Origin: Escherichia phage mEp554
DNA length: 53,846 nucleotides
Sequence record: PP180005
Reading direction: 5' to 3' (one strand)
In this document: positions 2,247 to 17,874 of the stretch, piece by piece
Layout: each line of letters begins with the position of its first letter
How positions within the stretch are numbered: the first letter of the stretch is position 1
Program-made: the position numbers and the translations under genes
The notes under the pieces: model-generated
Seen by the model: only the letters and a program-made list of their open reading frames with translations
The model's database searches: none
Told to the model about the DNA's origin: nothing

Positions 2247-2423
2247 TTACGCCACAGTTACATTGTCAACTTTGATAAAATATTCAGGGTGGTTTTCTAT
2301 TTCGTGCTTAAAGTGCGCATGACACAATCGCCAATCACGCGCCTGATTGTGAAAATAGTAAACGTATTCGCCATCAATCTTGTATAAAATGCCCGTAGGT
2401 TTAGCCATGTAGTAACGAACCAT
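2247..2423 (-). CDS. Hypothetical small protein (58 aa from the coupled start; ORF extends to 2477)
   Basis: ATG at 2423 overlaps the NinB stop (TAATG) and is preceded by GGGG. Confidence 0.5.
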   Translation of the reverse strand: MVRYYMAKPTGILYKIDGEYVYYFHNQARDWRLCHAHFKHEIENHPEYFIKVDNVTVA

Positions 2424-2854
2424 TATTGCCCCCAGCGTTTTATAAATTCCTCGTTTAACTTCGTATCGCCAGACCACTGAACACCGTGTTCAGCGCCGAA
2501 CGAGTAGATCAGTTCGATTAATTCGCTAAATTCTGCTTTACTCATCCGGCTGGTTGACGTACCAAGCACAACAAAACCTGATTTATCAAGGTTAGGGACA
2601 ACGCCATATTTCTTAAGCCCGGCAGTAAATACCGCTTTCCAGTCTTCAGGGGACAGCTTTTTGCCGTACCAATTAACCTGATCGCTAACGTCTGTCAGCA
2701 GCGCCCAAAGCAACGCGTTTTGACTCAGCGACCGGGTTTTCTCCTGGATGGTAATTACCAGCGGGCTTTTGCTATCTGGCTGGATCTCTCTTATCTGCCT
2801 GACAGCATTTTCTTTCACGGCGTCGTTTACTATCTCAAATCTAATTTGCCTCAT
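2423..2854 (-). CDS. ninB: NinB/Orf-family recombination mediator
   Basis: 143 aa. Collinear with my recollection of lambda NinB (VITIQEKTRSLSQNALLWALLTDVS...VVPNL...GFVVLGTSTSRM...F..L.ELI..FG...GV.WS). Confidence 0.85.
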   Translation of the reverse strand: MRQIRFEIVNDAVKENAVRQIREIQPDSKSPLVITIQEKTRSLSQNALLWALLTDVSDQVNWYGKKLSPEDWKAVFTAGLKKYGVVPNLDKSGFVVLGTSTSRMSKAEFSELIELIYSFGAEHGVQWSGDTKLNEEFIKRWGQ

Positions 2855-3048
2855 GATACACCGTTACTATTTTTCCACTGCGCCCGCGCATACATGATCG
2901 CCCGCAAAGAAATTAGGCGCGAGCTTGTCATAAAAGCGCTTTTTAAGTACCTCATATCAACAACAACAGGCTTATCAGGATCGTCGCTGCGCATGTATTC
3001 CGCAATCGTGCTCAAGTCTTCAACTGTCAATTCCAATTCCCTGTTCAT
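2851..3048 (-). CDS. Hypothetical protein (65 aa from ATG 3048; ORF open to 3126)
   Basis: SD AAGGTGG 5 nt upstream of ATG 3048. Stop overlaps the ninB start. Confidence 0.5.
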   Translation of the reverse strand: MNRELELTVEDLSTIAEYMRSDDPDKPVVVDMRYLKSAFMTSSRLISLRAIMYARAQWKNSNGVS

Positions 3049-3058
3049 GATCGCCACC

Positions 3059-3265
3059 TTACACAATCCGCATTGTGTTTCGTAATTCACCGCGCAACGC
3101 CTGTAAAGCGTAACGAATCGACACAAAAGCCCGGTTAAATTTTACGTGCCTGTATTTGCGCATTAGTGGCGGCGTATAAACCATCGCGCCGCAAGGATCG
3201 CATGGGAATTTAAAGTGAGATTCGTCAATAAACGTTTCAACTGAATAAAAAATTACCCGTCTCAT
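3059..3265 (-). CDS. Hypothetical protein (68 aa)
   Basis: Start overlaps the upstream stop (ATGA at 3262-3265), suggesting translational coupling. Confidence 0.5.
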   Translation of the reverse strand: MRRVIFYSVETFIDESHFKFPCDPCGAMVYTPPLMRKYRHVKFNRAFVSIRYALQALRGELRNTMRIV

Positions 3266-3819
3266 AATTCCAACCCCGTTTCGCCGTTAAGTTTTTCGAT
3301 CTCAAATATTGGTTTATCCGGTAGCAGGCCGTTATTTTTCCGGTATTCGTTCAGGCGTCTGTCAAAGTCAAAAGCCAAATCATTAGCGTGACCGAAGCGC
3401 CCAGGTTTAAACAATGAGTAAAAATTTACCCCGTGTCGGTTAGGGTCAACGCAAAGCGTTTCATCAATAACCATTAAACGCAGAGTACGAGATAGATAAT
3501 TCCACGGAATACCCGTTTCCGCGCTAATGTCGCGCATACGCTTTTTAACGCTGTAGTCACCAAATAACGCAGCGACGCGCTCGCGACGTTCAGCATATAA
3601 CTGTTTAATACGATAACCAAGCAGTCGGCGGCGGCGTCCAAAACATGTATACACGCGCTCGACGATGCCGTTTTTTATTAAGTGTTTAATTGTCTCAGGC
3701 ATGATTCCATCCTTATCATACCCGACCAATAATCCTGTTTTCTGGCGTAACTGGTGCATTGTTGCGATGCCATCAAGTTCAAGGATATTGATAATTTTTG
3801 TTTCAATTTCAGCGCTCAT
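3262..3819 (-). CDS. Hypothetical protein with probable N-terminal winged-helix (185 aa)
   Basis: ORF track. Lies downstream of the DnaB-like gene in the same operon. No confident family assignment. Confidence 0.6.
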   Translation of the reverse strand: MSAEIETKIINILELDGIATMHQLRQKTGLLVGYDKDGIMPETIKHLIKNGIVERVYTCFGRRRRLLGYRIKQLYAERRERVAALFGDYSVKKRMRDISAETGIPWNYLSRTLRLMVIDETLCVDPNRHGVNFYSLFKPGRFGHANDLAFDFDRRLNEYRKNNGLLPDKPIFEIEKLNGETGLEL

Positions 3820-3895
3820 TTTTAGCCTCGTTTAAAACGCGATAACAGCCACCAGAAAGCGGTAAACTTTCCGGCAAGCTGTTTGCTAATATTGA

Positions 3896-5311
3896 TTAAA
3901 AAGATGCGTTATTCTGATTGTTTCGTTGGTTAAAACGGCTTGTGCGATGATTCATTGACTGAATGCACGCTGCGGCTGCGCGCGCCTGGTCGCATGGCAA
4001 GATATTACCGTTGTCATCAAACCGCTGGTAAACAGTTCCAGACTTACCATGACGGTTTTTTGACACAATAATTTCCATATATTCGCGGGCAACAGACTGT
4101 TCATCGTAATATCCATCTCGGTAAACCATGATTATCCTGTCGGCATCTTGCTCAAGGTTGCCCGAATCACGAAGATCAGAATTGTTAGGTCGCTTGTTCG
4201 GTCGTTCCTCAACACGGCGGGACAATTGCGCCAGCGCCAACACTGGTACACGCAATTCTTTAGCCATCATCTTTAACGACCACGACAATTGCCCTACGGC
4301 GAGATCATGACGTTCGGCCTTAGCCAGCTTCATTAACCCGATATAGTCAATCATTACCATACCCAGGTTCGGGTGATCCTGCTTCATCCGTTCCGTTGTT
4401 GCGCGTATTTCCTCAACCGTTAACTGCGACGCGTCAACGATCCACACATCAAGATTAGCAAGTGCGCTCATACCCTGGCCGACATGCGCCCACCCCTCAT
4501 CATCAAGTTTTACAGGATTGCGCAGGCAGTCGGTTGATAAATTACCAGCGCCCGCGATAGCGCGCTCAGTCATCTGATCGAGTGACATTTCAAGCGTGAA
4601 GAACAAAACGCCAACCCGCTGATCCTTGCTGCCAGGGTAAGGTCGCTCAGCGGCAGCGCGGGCAATTGTCAGCGCCAACGCAGATTTACCAGACCCAGGG
4701 CGTCCGGCGAGAAGTACCAAATCAGTAGCGTTAATGCCGCCCAACATTTCGTCGAGTGGTTCTATACCTGTTTTGATGTTGTCAGAGTTGACACCGCATT
4801 CCATGCGCTTGCTTAAAACGTCAGTATATTCCTGTACCGCATCGCGCAACAGAACAGGAATGATCTTGTCTTTCGTTACCTTTAATTTTGAATACCGGGA
4901 ATCAAAATCTTTCATCGTCTCTTTGACGACCTCAAGCGTCCCAGTCTCCAGTTTGTAGCGCATATCGTCGATTAGTTCCAACATCTGCCGCCGCTGGTGC
5001 TCTTCACGTAGTAACTGTGCGTATCCCTTCAGGTTGGCAGCAGACGGGCACGAACGCGCCGTTTGCATTAGCGGTACGAAATTTTCATTACCAATCTCAT
5101 CACCGACCAGCAACGCATCTATGAGATTTCTGTTTCTGGCTTGTGCCCGGATAACTTCAAACGCACGTTTATAGAGCGGGATCGTGAACACTTCAGGATC
5201 AAGTGTGGCGAGAACATCTTGCGCGTTAGGAGTTAGGCCACCTAACAGCAGCCCGCCGATAACTGACGCCTCACGTTCCTGCCGTAGTGAGTTTATTTGC
5301 TCAGTTACCAT
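3896..5311 (-). CDS. dnaB: Replicative DNA helicase, DnaB family
   Basis: 471 aa. Walker A GRPGSGKSALAL, DnaB-type C-terminal motifs (MIDYIGLM, LAQLSR, RDSG..EQDAD) and an N-terminal DnaB-like domain. Confidence 0.9.
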   Translation of the reverse strand: MVTEQINSLRQEREASVIGGLLLGGLTPNAQDVLATLDPEVFTIPLYKRAFEVIRAQARNRNLIDALLVGDEIGNENFVPLMQTARSCPSAANLKGYAQLLREEHQRRQMLELIDDMRYKLETGTLEVVKETMKDFDSRYSKLKVTKDKIIPVLLRDAVQEYTDVLSKRMECGVNSDNIKTGIEPLDEMLGGINATDLVLLAGRPGSGKSALALTIARAAAERPYPGSKDQRVGVLFFTLEMSLDQMTERAIAGAGNLSTDCLRNPVKLDDEGWAHVGQGMSALANLDVWIVDASQLTVEEIRATTERMKQDHPNLGMVMIDYIGLMKLAKAERHDLAVGQLSWSLKMMAKELRVPVLALAQLSRRVEERPNKRPNNSDLRDSGNLEQDADRIIMVYRDGYYDEQSVAREYMEIIVSKNRHGKSGTVYQRFDDNGNILPCDQARAAAACIQSMNHRTSRFNQRNNQNNASF

Positions 5312-5329
5312 TATGTTATTTCCTCCGGT

Positions 5330-6448
5330 TTACAAAATGGAAAATTCAGGGTAATAAACAAAGCGCCCGATCTCACCATGATCCGGGCTGTAAATTATTA
5401 CCGCCGCCAGGCGACGCGACCGCCAGCCGCCATTAGTTGAATAGGCATCTTTACCAGCTAACGTGCCGTGATACTCAACAACGCCCAACGATGATTCAAT
5501 CATCCGTTGATGATGCCAGTGCCCGCAGTGGGCGTAAACCGCCGCAGACTTGCCGAAATCCTCGCGCCAGTCAGCTACGCAAGCAGCCAATAAGTTTTCC
5601 GGCTTTTTGATAGTGTGCCCGTGGTGGTAAGCAAGGAATGTTTTCCCGTACTGCGTGTGGTGGACGATAGTAGGTGACACATCAACCGTCACGCGCGGTT
5701 CATCTTCGTAAAAAGCCGCCAGCGCCGCACGTAGCCAAATCATACCAGACTGGTCATGATTCCCTGATAACACCTGGATTTCCACATCCTTATGATTTAG
5801 CAACATCTTTCCTACAGCCCGCCGGACAGACCGGATCGCCACATAAACAAGTTTTGCGTAGCGCGAATCGCAATCAAGAACGTGATTGCTTGATGGCGTC
5901 ACTGGTAACAATCCGTCAGTGTGAAGCAGGTCGCCCCCGAGAAGAAGAACCGCTTTTTCACTCATAGGGGCAGCGCCAACTGCGTAGTCAAAGAAGTCAT
6001 TTAACACGCGTTCAGCGATCCCAGTGTCGTAGCTCTCGCCGCATTCAGCTTTATGAGCAAGCGCCCCGATGTGCAGGTCAAACACCGGATAAAGTGCCAG
6101 GCTTTTTTGAAAATCAATTTCAGGCACTGGCACGGCCTCCGCGCGTGGTATTTCTTCCGTGAATGCGTCGCGGGCCGCTTCCATTAACTGTTCCATTTCG
6201 TCGCGGTCACGGGCTGTTTTAATCCAGCGCATGATCACATTGCCATCCTTATCGACTAGCAACGACTCGCCATTAACACCAAAACCAGGAGCGCGGCGCG
6301 TTGATAATAAACCGCGTTTTGCCAGTTTTGCTCCCAGGCGTTCGACATTGCGTTTAGACATGCCGTACTTTTCAGCGATCTGTTTGTACGTTAATCCGTT
6401 GTTATATTCAGCGATCAATTGCTCATCACTGATTTTTCTTTGCGACAT
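5330..6448 (-). CDS. HTH domain fused to a calcineurin-like metallophosphoesterase
   Basis: Start at ATG 6448 (SD GGAGGG). N-terminal HTH (LTYKQIAEKYGMSKRNVERL). Phosphoesterase motifs DLHIG, GGDLLHTDG, SGNHDQ, HHGH, GHWHH. Confidence 0.7.
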   Translation of the reverse strand: MSQRKISDEQLIAEYNNGLTYKQIAEKYGMSKRNVERLGAKLAKRGLLSTRRAPGFGVNGESLLVDKDGNVIMRWIKTARDRDEMEQLMEAARDAFTEEIPRAEAVPVPEIDFQKSLALYPVFDLHIGALAHKAECGESYDTGIAERVLNDFFDYAVGAAPMSEKAVLLLGGDLLHTDGLLPVTPSSNHVLDCDSRYAKLVYVAIRSVRRAVGKMLLNHKDVEIQVLSGNHDQSGMIWLRAALAAFYEDEPRVTVDVSPTIVHHTQYGKTFLAYHHGHTIKKPENLLAACVADWREDFGKSAAVYAHCGHWHHQRMIESSLGVVEYHGTLAGKDAYSTNGGWRSRRLAAVIIYSPDHGEIGRFVYYPEFSIL

Positions 6449-6481
6449 AATGTTAATCCCTCCAGTTAACAAAATGTATAC

Positions 6482-7225
6482 CTATTTGCACGCAAAAAGT
6501 TCAGACACCCAAAGTTGACCCTTAGCAGTAAATAGTGATTGTACATAACCAGCATCCGAACATTTTACCACTCCATAGCCTTTGTCTAAAAACCACTGTT
6601 TGAACATGCGCCCGCCGCGCCTAATTCGCGTATCGTACACGTCAACCTGTTCAAGTTTTTTGTTGAGTTGCGTAGCAGTCATACCCAAAGGCTTGGCAAC
6701 CTGTGTAGCGTTGCGATACTGTTTGTTTCTCACAATCGCATCACAGACAGCCGCTTTTGGCGCTAATTCCTTGTTTTCCAGCTCCAGCCGTTCAGCTTCT
6801 TTCTGTGCTAATAGTTTTTGTTCCACCTCATCAGCCCATGCGCGAGCCGCAGCAACCGGGTCAGTGAAATCCGGCAAAGCTGGTTTAAAACCGTAATGTC
6901 CATTTTCACGCAAAGCAGGGAGAACATCCTCGCACACCCAATCCTGGAAGCGCTCAGCCGATTCTATTTTTGATCGCATCACAAGGCGGTAAACATCTGA
7001 TTCATGGATTAGCGTTACGCCTTGCGGGATTGGAGCGAATCCCAAATGTTCCATTTCAGAACATTTTATTTTTATCAATGACTTACAGTGATCTTTGATA
7101 GCTTTTTGTGGCGTAGCGTAACCAAGCGCCCGCGCCACATCCATTGCAACAAAAGCAGGTTTACCATCATAAATTACAGCAGTGATTTTATTGTCATCAA
7201 AATTAAAGCACATCAACTCAGACAT
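6482..7225 (-). CDS. Antirepressor-like protein, Bro-N plus KilAC-type domains
   Basis: Start at ATG 7225 (SD GGAG). Bro-N signature (FVAMDVARALGY...HCKS...SDVYRLVMRSK...AERFQDWVCEDVLPALRENG). C-terminal half is KilAC-like. Confidence 0.75.
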   Translation of the reverse strand: MSELMCFNFDDNKITAVIYDGKPAFVAMDVARALGYATPQKAIKDHCKSLIKIKCSEMEHLGFAPIPQGVTLIHESDVYRLVMRSKIESAERFQDWVCEDVLPALRENGHYGFKPALPDFTDPVAAARAWADEVEQKLLAQKEAERLELENKELAPKAAVCDAIVRNKQYRNATQVAKPLGMTATQLNKKLEQVDVYDTRIRRGGRMFKQWFLDKGYGVVKCSDAGYVQSLFTAKGQLWVSELFACK

Positions 7226-7357
7226 TGTAATTTCTCCGTAAAACGCGCTACAACGCAAAAATCCCACCGCGTAACCCGATTGCACAGGTTGCAGTGTTTT
7301 ATTGCGTCAGAGGCGCTTTCAGATGGCTAATTTTTGATTTACAGACTGATATGAATG

Positions 7358-7459
7358 TTATGGATTGACTAGAAGGAACAAACCGCCGAACAAAGCGACG
7401 TTAACAGCGATTGCAGCAGCGATGGCAAAAGCCAGGGCGAAAACGTGTTTACCGTCCAT
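7358..7459 (-). CDS. 33-aa hydrophobic single-TM micro-ORF (MDGKHVFALAFAIAAAIAVNVALFGGLFLLVNP)
   Basis: Below the ORF-track cutoff. SD GAGAGGA 8 nt upstream. Same strand as flanking genes. Confidence 0.45.
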   Translation of the reverse strand: MDGKHVFALAFAIAAAIAVNVALFGGLFLLVNP

Positions 7460-7593
7460 TTTCAAAATCCTCTCTAAAACGCTCTATAACGAGCTAAATA
7501 GCTAAAGGTATGCAAGTGTAGCACCAAATGCTTTTTAGCTCGCTGGTGAGCTTGTTTGGTTGGTTATTTTTGATTTTTGCGGATCGTGGTTGG

Positions 7594-8595
7594 TCAAAGA
7601 GCGCCTGCGCGTGTATCACGTAGCGTTTTTGGTTTAAGCAGGAAATCAAGTGTCGCAGTGAAGCCATCGCCGAAGTAAAAATCTGAAGCATTGTTTTTGA
7701 ACGTTTCAAAGTAGGCGACAAAGCCGTTAATGCTTTTGTCTTTCAGGTAGTCAGTGAACGCGTAGATCTTGCGTTCAAGATCCCGATCCAGTTCGGCAGG
7801 TGGCAACAGGCCATCAAACGTGCTGTTAAATGCCTCCACTACGTCTGCAGCGTTTGCAGTGGCTGACAGGTTGCGCCATTTTTCAGCATCAGCCAGATAC
7901 CCATCAAATTTAGTTACCCGGCAAATGTTAATAGGCTTAGGTGTTCCGCCACGACTACGCCATTGCGTTAAAGCCCACTCAATCACTAATGTGATCTCAT
8001 CCTCTGTGTACGCTTTACGTGTTTTTGTTTCTGTCAGTAGTTCTATGAATGGCTTTGCATCACGACATTTGCATCCTGCCTTGTCGTTATAGAAGGCCAG
8101 GCAACGCAATGCCGCTTCGTTTACTCCATCCTGATTGACCTGTTTTTCTTCTGGGGGGATACAAGGGGGTATATCTTTAATGTTCTCTTTACTGGTTATA
8201 TATGACTGATTAGGGTGTCTCTCTGACACTACCCCCGGTGTCACTGTGACACTACCCCGGTGTCTCTCTGACACTACCCCCGGTGTCTCTCTGACACTAC
8301 CCAGCAATGATGGTAGGACTATCACATAGAAGTTACTCGTTTGCTCCTTTCCTCCGATTAAGTATCTTGGTTGTTTAATCAATAGACCTTTCTCACAAAG
8401 GGCGTCGACGGCCCTCATTGCCGTACTCTTACTGATCTCGCATTCCTTTGCTATGTGATGATAAGAAGGGTAACACTCGCCGTTATCATTAGCGTTATCA
8501 GCTAACTTCAACAGCACTAGTTTGTGCATTGGGTTGCCGACCTCAGTATGGAAGACTTCTACCATTAGCCGCATACTCATAAGCATTAACCTCAT
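7594..8595 (-). CDS. Replication initiator (N-terminal wHTH, internal iteron-encoded linker, conserved phage C-terminal domain)
   Basis: 333-aa ORF; exact start uncertain (several ATGs at 8565-8595). wHTH KLVLLKLADNANDNGECYPSYHHIAKECEISKSTAMRAVDALCEKGLL. Four iterons lie inside the gene, as in lambda O. Confidence 0.7.
   Translation of the reverse strand: MRLMLMSMRLMVEVFHTEVGNPMHKLVLLKLADNANDNGECYPSYHHIAKECEISKSTAMRAVDALCEKGLLIKQPRYLIGGKEQTSNFYVIVLPSLLGSVRETPGVVSERHRGSVTVTPGVVSERHPNQSYITSKENIKDIPPCIPPEEKQVNQDGVNEAALRCLAFYNDKAGCKCRDAKPFIELLTETKTRKAYTEDEITLVIEWALTQWRSRGGTPKPINICRVTKFDGYLADAEKWRNLSATANAADVVEAFNSTFDGLLPPAELDRDLERKIYAFTDYLKDKSINGFVAYFETFKNNASDFYFGDGFTATLDFLLKPKTLRDTRAGAL
8214..8302. 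repeat. Four contiguous 22-23-bp iterons (GGTGTCTCTCTGACACTACCCCC): candidate origin of replication
   Basis: Copies at 8214-8236, 8237-8258, 8259-8281 and 8282-8302. Each contains the dyad GTGTC-N5-GACAC. An AT-richer stretch lies adjacent (8174-8213). The repeat encodes the peptide TPGVVSERH. Confidence 0.7.
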
Positions 8596-14899: not shown

Positions 14900-15092
14900 A
14901 CATTACAGAGAATGGAAGATTCCAGAATCAGCAACAAAGGCAGCGCCCGGAATATTTTCGGGCGTTTATTTTTATATGGAAGGTAAATGGTATTTCGGCA
15001 GCAGGCCGGATCACTATTATCAAGAAGTATGCAAATCTCACACATGGGACATTAAGGAGCGCGTGCAAGGCGGTGTAATAGACGAGGTTTAA
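14889..15092 (+). CDS. Hypothetical protein (67 aa)
   Basis: ATG 14889 with SD GAGGTG. Confidence 0.55.
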   Translation: MRFKHYREWKIPESATKAAPGIFSGVYFYMEGKWYFGSRPDHYYQEVCKSHTWDIKERVQGGVIDEV

Positions 15093-15581: not shown

Positions 15582-16121
15582 ATGAAAAATGATTACGGCG
15601 GCAGCCATACGCCGAAAGAAATAAAAGACCTATGGCAAACGCCAAAACCAGTTTTTAGAGGAATGGATCGAGAATTCGAATTCGTCGCTGATGTGGCGGC
15701 AAACAAGGCAAACGCGCTAGTTCCGCGATATATAACCGAAGAAATGGACACGTTGCATTATCCGTGGGGAGCGGTGGCAATGCCTGGTGAATATGTCTGG
15801 ATGAATCCGCCATACTCAAACCCTGGTCCATTCGTTGATAAAGCGGCGCTCGAACATCAACTGAATCACATTGGTTGCGTAATGCTGTTGCCCGCTGACA
15901 TTTCTGTTAGCTGGTTCATGAACGGCGCGGAGACGGCAAACGAATGCAGATTAATAACGCGCGGGCGGCTGGCGTTTATCAATGCTGCGACTGGTAAGCC
16001 AGTGAGCGGAAACAATAAAGGGAGCTTGTTTTTGATCTGGCATCCACGATGCAGACATGAATGTATTTTTACACACATAACACGTAAAGAGCTATACGCA
16101 AGAGGTGCAGATAATGACTAG
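15582..16121 (+). CDS. dam: Phage N6-adenine DNA methyltransferase (Dam-like)
   Basis: 179 aa. WQTP...D.AA...N and catalytic NPPY (WMNPPYSNP). Poly-G SD. Confidence 0.85.
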   Translation: MKNDYGGSHTPKEIKDLWQTPKPVFRGMDREFEFVADVAANKANALVPRYITEEMDTLHYPWGAVAMPGEYVWMNPPYSNPGPFVDKAALEHQLNHIGCVMLLPADISVSWFMNGAETANECRLITRGRLAFINAATGKPVSGNNKGSLFLIWHPRCRHECIFTHITRKELYARGADND

Positions 16122-16611
16122 TGCGGCAGATTTACTACGAATCGCAGCGGAAACAATTGAGCAAAGAGGTAAACAAAACGGATACGACAGAAAAGAGGAA
16201 AAATCGGCGCCAAAAATAGCCACTATATATAACGCTAAGAAGGGCGCAAATTTAACCCCGCTTGATGTATGGGATCTGTTGATTTGTCTCAAGGAGGCGC
16301 GTTTAGAGGCCATTTTGGCTAATGGTAGCGATCCTGCTGACACTTTGGTTGACCTAATCAGCTACAACGCACTAAAAGCTGAGCAAATATTGAATGATCG
16401 GGATGAAGAGTTAAAGAAAAATCAGTTCACTGCCGCCAATATTAGCGATGGAATAATAAAAGATGCAGCAATAACAAGCTGTAAGGGCTTACCCCCTTCA
16501 ATGCTTAATCCTCAATGCGGTTGCATTTCAACTCGGCTTGATTTGAGTTTTGACAGATCTGAAGCTATTCGCGATAAGAGGTATGACCCAAATGAAAAAG
16601 GTGACAATTGA
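16114..16611 (+). CDS. Hypothetical protein; N-terminal region resembles the phage DUF6378-type helical domain
   Basis: Start at ATG 16114 (SD GAGGTG). The pattern IEQRGKQNGYD...IATIYNAKKG.NLTPLDVWDLLICLKEAR is recalled, not searched. Confidence 0.45.
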   Translation: MTSAADLLRIAAETIEQRGKQNGYDRKEEKSAPKIATIYNAKKGANLTPLDVWDLLICLKEARLEAILANGSDPADTLVDLISYNALKAEQILNDRDEELKKNQFTAANISDGIIKDAAITSCKGLPPSMLNPQCGCISTRLDLSFDRSEAIRDKRYDPNEKGDN

Positions 16612-17095
16612 CAGGTTATTGGCCTGCGTTTATGTCGCCGTTTTCGTGATCATCAACCTTATTGTTAACCATTGCGGCCCGTGGGTAATTCCGATCACTA
16701 CGGTAGCCGCTGTGTGTGTCAATATGATGATCCGTGACTTCCTGTTATATGACGGCGGCTTGAAATGGTCGGCTACAACATGCGCCGCCGCTGGCGCAAT
16801 CACGGTGCTAATAAATTACGATGCAGGAATGGTAGCAATAGCGTCATTCGTCGCGGTTGTTTCCGGTGCGCTTATATCTGGCGGTGTTTACCGGGTTTTG
16901 CCTGGTGATTTCGATTCGAAACGCTGGCCTGCAAATATAGCTTCAGCCATCGGGGATGCGTTAATTTTCCCGACGCTATCGTTTATGGCGTTTATGCCGG
17001 AAATATCAGCGATGCAATTCATCTCAAAAATGGCAGCGGTGACGGTGATCACTATCATCATGCGCCGCTATTTCACGTTTGAGGGCAAAAAATGA
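16592..17095 (+). CDS. Polytopic membrane protein, possibly VUT/YhhQ (queuosine-precursor transporter) family
   Basis: 167 aa, 4-5 hydrophobic segments. GDALIFP and the overall pattern are reminiscent of DUF165/YhhQ. Assignment is tentative. Confidence 0.4.
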   Translation: MKKVTIDRLLACVYVAVFVIINLIVNHCGPWVIPITTVAAVCVNMMIRDFLLYDGGLKWSATTCAAAGAITVLINYDAGMVAIASFVAVVSGALISGGVYRVLPGDFDSKRWPANIASAIGDALIFPTLSFMAFMPEISAMQFISKMAAVTVITIIMRRYFTFEGKK

Positions 17096-17874
17096 GCAAG
17101 GCTAAACACTGGTTATATAATTGGCTAAGAAACTGGGTTGTGTGGTCGCTGTACGACGGCAGCGGGTACGCCGTTAAAGACTGGGCGGAAGCGGGATATA
17201 AGTGCTATTGCTTCAACTATGACGGCGCAAATCACGGCGATTATGAAGGCGTTAAAATCATTCATCCGAATATTGAATACGTTAACGTATGGATTGACAG
17301 TCACTTCCTGGTGATGTTCTCGCCTGACTTGTCAGTTTACCCAGAGCCTGACATTATCCTGGGCTTCCCGCCGTGCGACGATCTCGCCGTGTCTGGCGCT
17401 CGCTGGTTCGCTGACAAACGAAAAAAAGATCCTGACTTCCAGGTGAAGGCGGCGAATAGCGCAAAACTGGTAGAAAAACTGGCGGATATGCACAACGTGC
17501 CGTGGATGGTGGAAAATCCGGTGGGGGCACTGTCAACGCTATGGCGTAAACCGGATTTTATCTTCAATCCTTGCGCTTACGGTGGCTACCTGCCGGAAGA
17601 TGACAAACATCCTGCTTTCCCGGATGTTTACCCGGCGCGCGACGCGTATACAAAGAAAACTTGTATTTGGTGCGGTAACGGATTTAAGCAGCCGCTTTTC
17701 AGACCTGTAGATCTTAACTCTGGTGATAACCCGGGGTGGGCGAAAACAGGAGGCAGGACGAAACGAACAAAGATGATCCGCTCACTAACGCCGCGCGGCT
17801 TTGCCCGTGCTGTATTCCTGGCTAACGACCGGGCCATCAATCGTACTACGCTTAACCGTGTTTTGCCGGACTGA
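17092..17874 (+). CDS. Minimal C5-cytosine-methyltransferase-like protein
   Basis: 260 aa. Motif I-like SLYDGSGYA, motif IV-like GFPPCDDLAVSG (PC dipeptide), motif VI-like VENPVG, C-terminal TPRGFARAV. ATGA-coupled to the upstream membrane gene. Confidence 0.55.
   Translation: MSKAKHWLYNWLRNWVVWSLYDGSGYAVKDWAEAGYKCYCFNYDGANHGDYEGVKIIHPNIEYVNVWIDSHFLVMFSPDLSVYPEPDIILGFPPCDDLAVSGARWFADKRKKDPDFQVKAANSAKLVEKLADMHNVPWMVENPVGALSTLWRKPDFIFNPCAYGGYLPEDDKHPAFPDVYPARDAYTKKTCIWCGNGFKQPLFRPVDLNSGDNPGWAKTGGRTKRTKMIRSLTPRGFARAVFLANDRAINRTTLNRVLPD

Follow-up and report, generated by a model that had tools for sequence, protein, structure and literature searches.

A four-gene block of Escherichia phage mEp554 with two predicted DNA methyltransferases and a minimal YhhQ-type transporter homolog is probably a mosaic of auxiliary genes

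We analyzed a 53,846-nucleotide (nt) stretch of DNA from Escherichia phage mEp554 (sequence record PP180005), referred to here in its full length as the window. The subject of this work is a block of four genes at positions 15582-17874, which an earlier note made from the letters of the DNA had put forward as a possible DNA-modification module. The genes encode a phage Dam-type methyltransferase (MTase), a DUF6378 protein, a membrane protein and a short enzyme with the C5-cytosine MTase fold. Profile comparison places the membrane protein in the YhhQ/COG1738 superfamily, as a minimal member predicted to transport queuosine precursors, and it is found here without the DpdA-type gene that usually adjoins its relatives in other phages. 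We consider it probable that independent auxiliary genes of known kinds came together in this lineage as a mosaic and do not form a single pathway. The reading as a new modification pathway is not supported. Sequence records of mEp021-type phages and E. coli prophages already contain this block, with partial annotation, and as a whole it is ordinary.

Results

The membrane protein found no match at E ≤ 0.1 in Pfam and NCBIfam, including PF02592 and TIGR00697/NF008406, and its library match was phrog_4899 (E 1e-46). A word-indexed search returned 12 clusters only, and almost all of them came from phages of this group. When a 7-sequence profile was used in an exhaustive HMMER search, 257 representative relatives were recovered, mostly of 150-180 amino acids (aa). 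PF02592 (Vut_1) was matched by 77 of the 80 relatives that were aligned (best E 2.5e-15). The 80-sequence profile scored 28 bits against E. coli YhhQ in hmmsearch, and hhalign gave a probability of 92.8% (E 3.9e-7) over 140 columns running from helix 1 to helix 6. The shallow 7-sequence profile reached only 0.6% in hhalign; the link emerged only after the exhaustive search for representatives. The suggestion in the earlier note that this gene is VUT/YhhQ-like is thus borne out by profile methods that agree with each other, though no library hidden Markov model (HMM) makes the match directly.

The protein has six hydrophobic segments, and the mEp021 record gives six transmembrane (TM) segments by both TMHMM and Phobius. 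It shares a homologous six-helix core with E. coli YhhQ, a preQ0/preQ1 transporter, and N22, G29, R48, D122, F131 and K146 are common to both. The phage protein is shorter (167 aa versus 221 aa), and YhhQ has in addition an N-terminal extension, a C-terminal tail and two loop insertions. Unlike YhhQ, it lies below every library threshold and is phage-encoded, in an early lytic operon. Of the 18 invariant or nearly invariant family positions the protein retains 15, among them the four that are invariant (G29, D122, F131 and K146); the three changes (S123A, A130S and G149A) are at nearly invariant positions. PMC11130926 gives queuosine precursors as the only characterized COG1738 substrates, and these are the predicted cargo of the phage protein.

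The transporter gene has the lowest ratio of nonsynonymous to synonymous divergence (dN/dS) in the region, 0.028, compared with 0.056 for Dam, 0.072 for NinG, 0.104 for the C5-MTase-fold gene and 0.12 for Q. Every gene of the block is under purifying selection. The transporter frame is intact in 40 of 40 lineage sequences. The strong purifying selection together with the intact frame indicates that the transporter is functional. A separate observation concerns synonymous divergence (dS): over 16613-17091 the dS of this gene across the mEpimmI group of temperate phages, to which this block belongs, is 0.277, about half of that of the flanking genes (0.46-0.76). A recent sweep, recombination of this stretch or additional constraint at the DNA or RNA level could account for it.

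IMG/VR was scanned for relatives of the transporter. At least 542 stretches were confirmed, of which 80 loci with relatives at 31-37% identity were examined, the neighboring genes being grouped by clustering. One neighbor family of about 245 aa was shared by 73 of the 80 loci and lay immediately upstream of the transporter in 56, with the ORFs (open reading frames) overlapping or abutting. At least three of the seven loci without it sit at a contig edge. The family matches phrog_887 'queuine tRNA-ribosyltransferase' (E 3.6e-66), and its homologs in the isolated phages BTP1, SfI, HK106 and AB3P2 and in Vibrio phages carry the annotation queuine tRNA-ribosyltransferase. A sequence search found no match for it in PDB, Pfam or NCBIfam. 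Its members contain DxGxF and SADS motifs, which we take to be TGT-like. From the phrog_887 match, the GenBank annotations and these motifs, we assign the neighbor as a DpdA-type DNA 7-deazaguanine transglycosylase and call it DpdA-like. The other neighbors in the 80 loci are RusA, NinB, DUF1376, a Cas4-type exonuclease and a PAPS-reductase-like protein, that is, a nin region as in the window.

Contigs of environmental temperate phages very often carry a compact pair: a DpdA-like gene (about 245 aa) and, immediately after it and mostly overlapping it, a short VUT/YhhQ-like gene (loci L004-L083). One example is L059:4243-4983 (DpdA-like), which is followed by L059:5001-5453 (transporter). The same two genes, one of them named 'VUT family protein', adjoin in the isolated phages PEAT2, AB3P2, Sadiya, Lg3 and ECO111 5-P. 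The transporters of Pectobacterium phage PEAT2, Acinetobacter phage AB3P2 and Escherichia phages Sadiya and Lg3 belong to the same short clade as the mEp554 protein (28-37% identity), and their modules have a nin-like setting with RusA and NinB neighbors, as in mEp554. The difference is that the DpdA-like transglycosylase adjoins the transporter in those phages, whereas none is found in the mEp554 window. P0136, a relative with 35% identity and among the closest outside the mEpimmI lineage, is also followed by a DpdA-like gene. Phage CAjan carries yhhQ in a 7-deazaguanine cluster and makes its own preQ0; deletion of its yhhQ left the preQ0 modification intact. Hutinet et al. (2019) reported that phage YhhQ homologs are uncorrelated with any deazaguanine group and raised the idea that phages lacking DpdA might boost host queuosine-tRNA (Q-tRNA).

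An HMM built from 59 DpdA-like neighbors and run with filters off against every ORF of at least 30 aa in the window gave a best E value of 2.2. No Pfam match to TGT, QueC, QueD, QueE or FolE was found among 39 early-region ORFs, and no match to phrog_887 among the unassigned ORFs. The transporter is therefore here without its usual DpdA neighbor. The earlier note had advised caution because it could see no DpdA/TGT-like or preQ0-synthesis genes, and that caution was well placed, as none turned up in these scans. The preQ0-synthesis genes are optional in known DpdA-only phages.

Within the mEpimmI group the four genes travel together. The transporter was present and the four-gene order was kept in all 38 IMG/VR loci whose MTase is at least 83% identical (DUF6378 was detected in 37). 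The order in L084, a relative at 52-67% identity, is Dam, DUF6378, transporter, MTase, NinG, RusA and Q. Outside the group the picture is different: in 42 IMG/VR loci at 56-63% MTase identity, a transporter, DpdA, Dam or DUF6378 was found within 5 kb of the MTase in none (0/42), and these loci have their own, unrelated conserved neighbors. The MTase family of the window, phrog_757, occurs nearby in only two of the 80 transporter loci, and DUF6378 is present in one of the 80. Joint travel in this lineage only, with independent life elsewhere, is how a mosaic of shuffled nin-region genes would be expected to look. The idea that DUF6378 or Dam regularly accompanies the transporter or the MTase was rejected on the same counts (0/42 MTase loci; DUF6378 in 1/80 transporter loci).

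The junctions of the block are tight. Dam and the DUF6378 gene overlap by 8 nt (ATGACTAG), the DUF6378 and membrane protein genes by 20 nt, and the membrane protein and MTase genes by an ATGA at 17092-17095. Other 4-nt start/stop overlaps are found in the same operon between NinG and RusA, between RusA and the next gene, and between Q and its downstream gene. Since overlapping junctions are common along the operon, the ATGA coupling is no evidence of a shared function. The earlier proposal of a base-modification pathway thus survived in one part: the transporter clade is tied to 7-deazaguanine biology through the DpdA-like gene in 73/80 loci. The functional coupling of transporter and MTase did not hold up, given a window without DpdA, an MTase that stands alone in 42/42 distant loci and overlaps that are routine in this operon.

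One locus bears on the origin of the pair. In L036:4258-6686 a DpdA-like gene, a short transporter, two small ORFs and a 208-aa phrog_757 MTase follow in a row in a nin-like region, possibly the ancestral type of arrangement for the transporter-MTase pair of the window. From this gene set we infer that DpdA, the transporter and the phrog_757 MTase belong to a shared, shuffling pool.

The fourth gene encodes a 260-aa protein without a Pfam match, including PF00145 at E ≤ 0.1; among the homologs listed, a precomputed PF00145 match exists for only 2 of 120. It matches phrog_757 'DNA methyltransferase' (E 4e-87), a family of more than 7698 clusters, mostly of 227-260 aa and often named 'DNA cytosine methyltransferase'. 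A 36-sequence profile gave weak matches in PDB, yet 13 of 13 were C5-MTases, aligned from motif I to motif IV. The AlphaFold model (predicted local distance difference test score, pLDDT, 87) has the C5-MTase fold. Motifs I (YDGSG), IV (FPPC, Cys95) and VI (ENP, Glu141) are present; G23, S24, P94, C95, E141 and N142 are invariant in the 36 sequences, and motifs I to IV align with DNMT3B, M.HaeIII and CmoX. The target-recognition region is very small, just as the earlier note had remarked that almost no room was left for one.

Compared with the catalytic domain of DNMT3A/DNMT3B and with the bacterial C5-MTases M.HhaI and M.HaeIII, the mEp554 enzyme shows 12-18% identity and lacks the PF00145 match. 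Its family totals 227-260 aa, and every solved C5-MTase among the matches listed is longer. Motifs IX and X appear to be collapsed into one invariant C-terminal block, GGKSxRTKxIRSLTPRGFAxAVFxAN; R230 and R235 are invariant. The portion IRSLTPRGFAxAVFxAN resembles the consensus of motif IX and a DNMT3-type motif X to about the same degree, and the block aligned to no solved MTase by hhalign, hmmsearch or a C-terminal profile search of PDB. Motifs I, IV and VI of the earlier assignment therefore stand and motif X is not settled. The protein has the methylase fold and catalytic motifs; its cytosine methylation activity and target motifs are predicted from sequence. The short C5-MTase of other phage groups (L124-L165, contigs of 40-52 kb) is followed directly by a 128-aa protein in 29 of 42 loci; three genes downstream, 30 of 42 have a protein of about 526 aa.

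The first gene is unambiguously a phage Dam by homology, as the earlier note had it, and N6-adenine methylation is its predicted activity. It matches PF05869 (E 1.6e-51; 174.7 bits against a cut-off of 28.1), TIGR01712 (140.5 bits against a cut-off of 97.05) and phrog_111, and its translation contains the (D/N)PPY catalytic motif as WMNPPYS.

The second gene is best started at ATG 16114 and not at GTG 16105; an AGGTG ribosome-binding site precedes the ATG, and the mEp021 and RefSeq annotations use the same start. Residues 10-93 match PF19905 (32.1 bits against a gathering threshold of 27.1), in line with the DUF6378-type N-terminus noted earlier. In the alignment the N-terminal domain (residues 1 to about 95) is helical and nearly invariant within the lineage, with a dN/dS of 0.113. 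The C-terminal 70 residues or so are variable in sequence and length and rich in indels (dN/dS 0.317), and this tail is probably disordered. At 16399-16611 the tail is hypervariable, with at least two sequence types, and it shares its final 20 nt with the beginning of the transporter gene. The tail is missing from the relative in L084 (51% identity). A profile search of PDB with the DUF6378 protein gave no match; its AlphaFold2 model was poor (pLDDT 54), and the Foldseek matches were generic helical bundles with E ≥ 0.1, none of them significant. Dhillonvirus, 9NA and many other phages encode this domain by itself, as a protein of about 90 aa.

The coordinates are collected in Table 1. For the membrane protein the start at ATG 16592 was kept: AAGAGG lies 10 nt upstream and RefSeq agrees, while mEp021 is annotated from ATG 16583. 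All four ORFs are present on the + strand, consecutive and overlapping head to tail, as first described in the note.

Table 1. Features of the four-gene block and its upstream hairpin in the mEp554 window
Feature	Position	Strand	Description
Terminator-like hairpin, upstream of the block	14942..14966	+	11-bp stem followed by a T run; corresponds by position to predicted TERM_3 (t3) of mEp021 in MH706966.1
Dam	15582..16121	+	phage Dam-type N6-adenine DNA methyltransferase (predicted), 179 aa, NPPY motif
DUF6378 protein	16114..16611	+	165 aa; PF19905
Membrane protein	16592..17095	+	167 aa, about 6 TM; Vut_1/COG1738 (YhhQ) superfamily by profile, phage 'VUT family protein' clade
C5-cytosine DNA methyltransferase-fold enzyme	17092..17874	+	260 aa; phrog_757 family

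Escherichia phages mEp010, mEp021 and mEp515 match the 2.3-kb region over its full length at 93% nt identity, and prophage matches were found in 35 of 5426 complete E. coli genomes. The same four genes are mEp021_30 to mEp021_33 in MH706966.1 (about 93% nt identity), annotated as putative N6-adenine MTase, hypothetical protein, putative membrane protein (6 TM) and putative cytosine MTase. That record gives no family for the membrane protein, on which the paper on the mEpimmI phages is silent. According to that paper (PMC11893012) the mEpimmI temperate phages are Nus-dependent; for this block it mentions only a 'putative cytosine methyltransferase', just downstream of whose gene it places nutR2, and its predicted terminators include t3 and t4. 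The block is flanked by small early genes on one side and by NinG, RusA and Q downstream, and it therefore belongs to the nin-type, delayed-early section of the right operon.

Among the early-region ORFs, Pfam and PHROG searches identified integrase, NinB, DnaB, a replication initiator, an anti-repressor, a repressor, ERF, lysis genes and terminase genes. The - strand genes at 2423-8595 (NinB, a MarR-like protein, DnaB helicase, a phrog_704 'DNA repair exonuclease', a Bro-N/ANT anti-repressor and the replication initiator) run opposite to the operon of the block, a layout unlike that of lambda. A 220-aa ORF beside the integrase (1570-2232, - strand) has no Pfam or PHROG match and may be an accessory gene expressed in lysogeny (moron).

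Discussion

In the mosaic reading that we favor, Dam and the short DNMT3-like C5-MTase would methylate the replicating phage DNA (N6-methyladenine and 5-methylcytosine, m5C), for anti-restriction or self-marking. The membrane protein would be a functional minimal importer of the YhhQ type for 7-deazaguanine bases (preQ0/preQ1-like). Elsewhere in the clade such a transporter would normally feed the adjacent DpdA, which would swap guanine in DNA for a deazaguanine. As Dam and DUF6378 apparently take up the DpdA slot here, the importer of this lineage would most plausibly feed into the host Tgt/queuosine-tRNA pathway, or else serve a DpdA supplied in trans by another resident prophage; a host role is the one raised by Hutinet et al. 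(2019) for DpdA-less phages. The DUF6378 product would be a small helical protein of a kind that stands alone in many other phages.

Several points weigh against this reading. With a YhhQ of its own and de novo synthesis of preQ0, E. coli would have no obvious need of a further importer, yet the gene is the most conserved of the block. The closest transporter relative outside the lineage (48% identity) lies in a Succinivibrio metagenome-assembled genome (MAG), the only locus found by a genome-contig scan with a 5-sequence transporter alignment, and no DpdA is visible there. A similar case is P0138 (34% identity; L170:5001-5495 in a 128,650-bp Logan contig), where the transporter lies between a DNA ligase and a lysozyme-like gene, with an RNA ligase, SIR2 and endonuclease VII nearby and no DpdA-like gene within 5 kb. 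These two loci indicate that the link to DpdA is not universal. For the MTase, plain methylation dependent on S-adenosylmethionine (SAM) is an assumption, since the protein has no PF00145 match and its C-terminal block could not be assigned to motif X.

The missing partner invites other explanations of the transporter. It may be a homolog with another role, either carrying a different substrate or acting as a membrane effector (superinfection exclusion, or a modifier of lysis timing or physiology). We regard this as unlikely but worth keeping in view: the absent DpdA, the changes S123A, A130S and G149A at nearly invariant positions, a divergence too great for any library HMM and the unusually low synonymous divergence are all consistent with it, but 15 of the 18 conserved positions are kept, G29, D122, F131 and K146 among them, the alignment with E. 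coli YhhQ spans the whole six-helix core, and according to PMC11130926 the characterized COG1738 substrates are queuosine precursors only. A decaying remnant of a lost DpdA-YhhQ module would also lack the usual partner. This explanation is hardly credible, because a gene with the lowest dN/dS of the region and an intact frame in 40/40 sequences is not decaying, and the pseudogene-like relic was rejected on the dN/dS of 0.028.

The other alternatives give the MTase-fold enzyme a chemistry beyond methylation. That mEpimmI DNA is modified without DpdA and by something other than plain SAM methylation, whether through an orphan importer that feeds another enzyme placing a deazaguanine-type base or through a phrog_757 enzyme using, for example, host carboxy-SAM (Cx-SAM), is improbable in our estimate. 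The more specific forms of this idea fare worse. The 260-aa enzyme could be a C5-carboxymethyltransferase like CmoX of Synechococcus phage S-B43 (PDB 8YF3), and would then form 5-carboxymethylcytosine from Cx-SAM made by host CmoA. CmoX, too, comes from a phage and combines the C5-MTase fold with a PPC catalytic loop. The loops of the two enzymes align, together with the x-x-[FL]-[SA]-V-[AS]-G that comes after PPC in each. In vivo, CmoX obtained its Cx-SAM from E. coli CmoA, so a coliphage would need no cmoA of its own. However, the CmoX signature consists of SPPC (S95-P-P-C98) and the motif X residue Arg350; the Ser is replaced by Phe in mEp554 (FPPC; AFPPC in the family), and no residue aligned to Arg350. 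DNMT3B, DNMT3A and other SAM-dependent enzymes score equally well or better, so that structurally the mEp554 enzyme is no closer to CmoX than to them, and neither a CmoA-like nor a CmoY-like gene was found in the window by the Pfam scans of early-region ORFs. DNMT3A, too, has an Arg at this position of motif X, with SAM as its cofactor. A scan of IMG/VR with SpCmoX returned only relatives at 86-97% identity, useless for a deeper CmoX profile. Taken together, a CmoX-like activity is quite improbable.

More doubtful still, and in our view very improbable, is a direct partnership in which the transporter imports a precursor and the MTase-fold enzyme, possibly with DUF6378, installs it, giving a hypermodified base in place of m5C with no need of DpdA. 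The ATGA-coupled genes, their co-inheritance in 38/38 close loci and in L084, the strong conservation of a transporter without its usual partner and the ability of C5-MTase folds to transfer non-methyl groups, as in CmoX, would all fit such a scheme. It is countered by the distribution of the two families: the MTase occurs overwhelmingly without any transporter, and the transporter clade overwhelmingly with DpdA, the phrog_757 MTase being absent from 78 of 80 loci. The overlap, as said, is of a kind common in the operon. The chemistry is also against it. A C5-MTase attacks C6 of cytosine and transfers a group from a SAM-type cofactor, and we know of no chemistry by which such an enzyme would use an imported deazapurine base.

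The analysis gives the 'hypothetical membrane protein' of these phages a name, that of a minimal YhhQ/VUT-type transporter homolog. As its clade is a near-obligate neighbor of phage DpdA, the two genes provide a simple marker for temperate phages that may modify their DNA with deazaguanines. The short C5-MTase family is very large and we found no biochemical characterization of it in the literature; its motif specificity and cofactor are of interest, and if phrog_757 enzymes did use another cofactor, many 'Dcm-like' genes of coliphages would be misannotated. Finally, the mEpimmI phages are a cultivable K-12 phage group with a DpdA-less transporter under strong purifying selection, which makes them a handy system for the role of the transporter in phage biology, the candidate roles being a boost of queuosine in host tRNA or DNA modification in trans.

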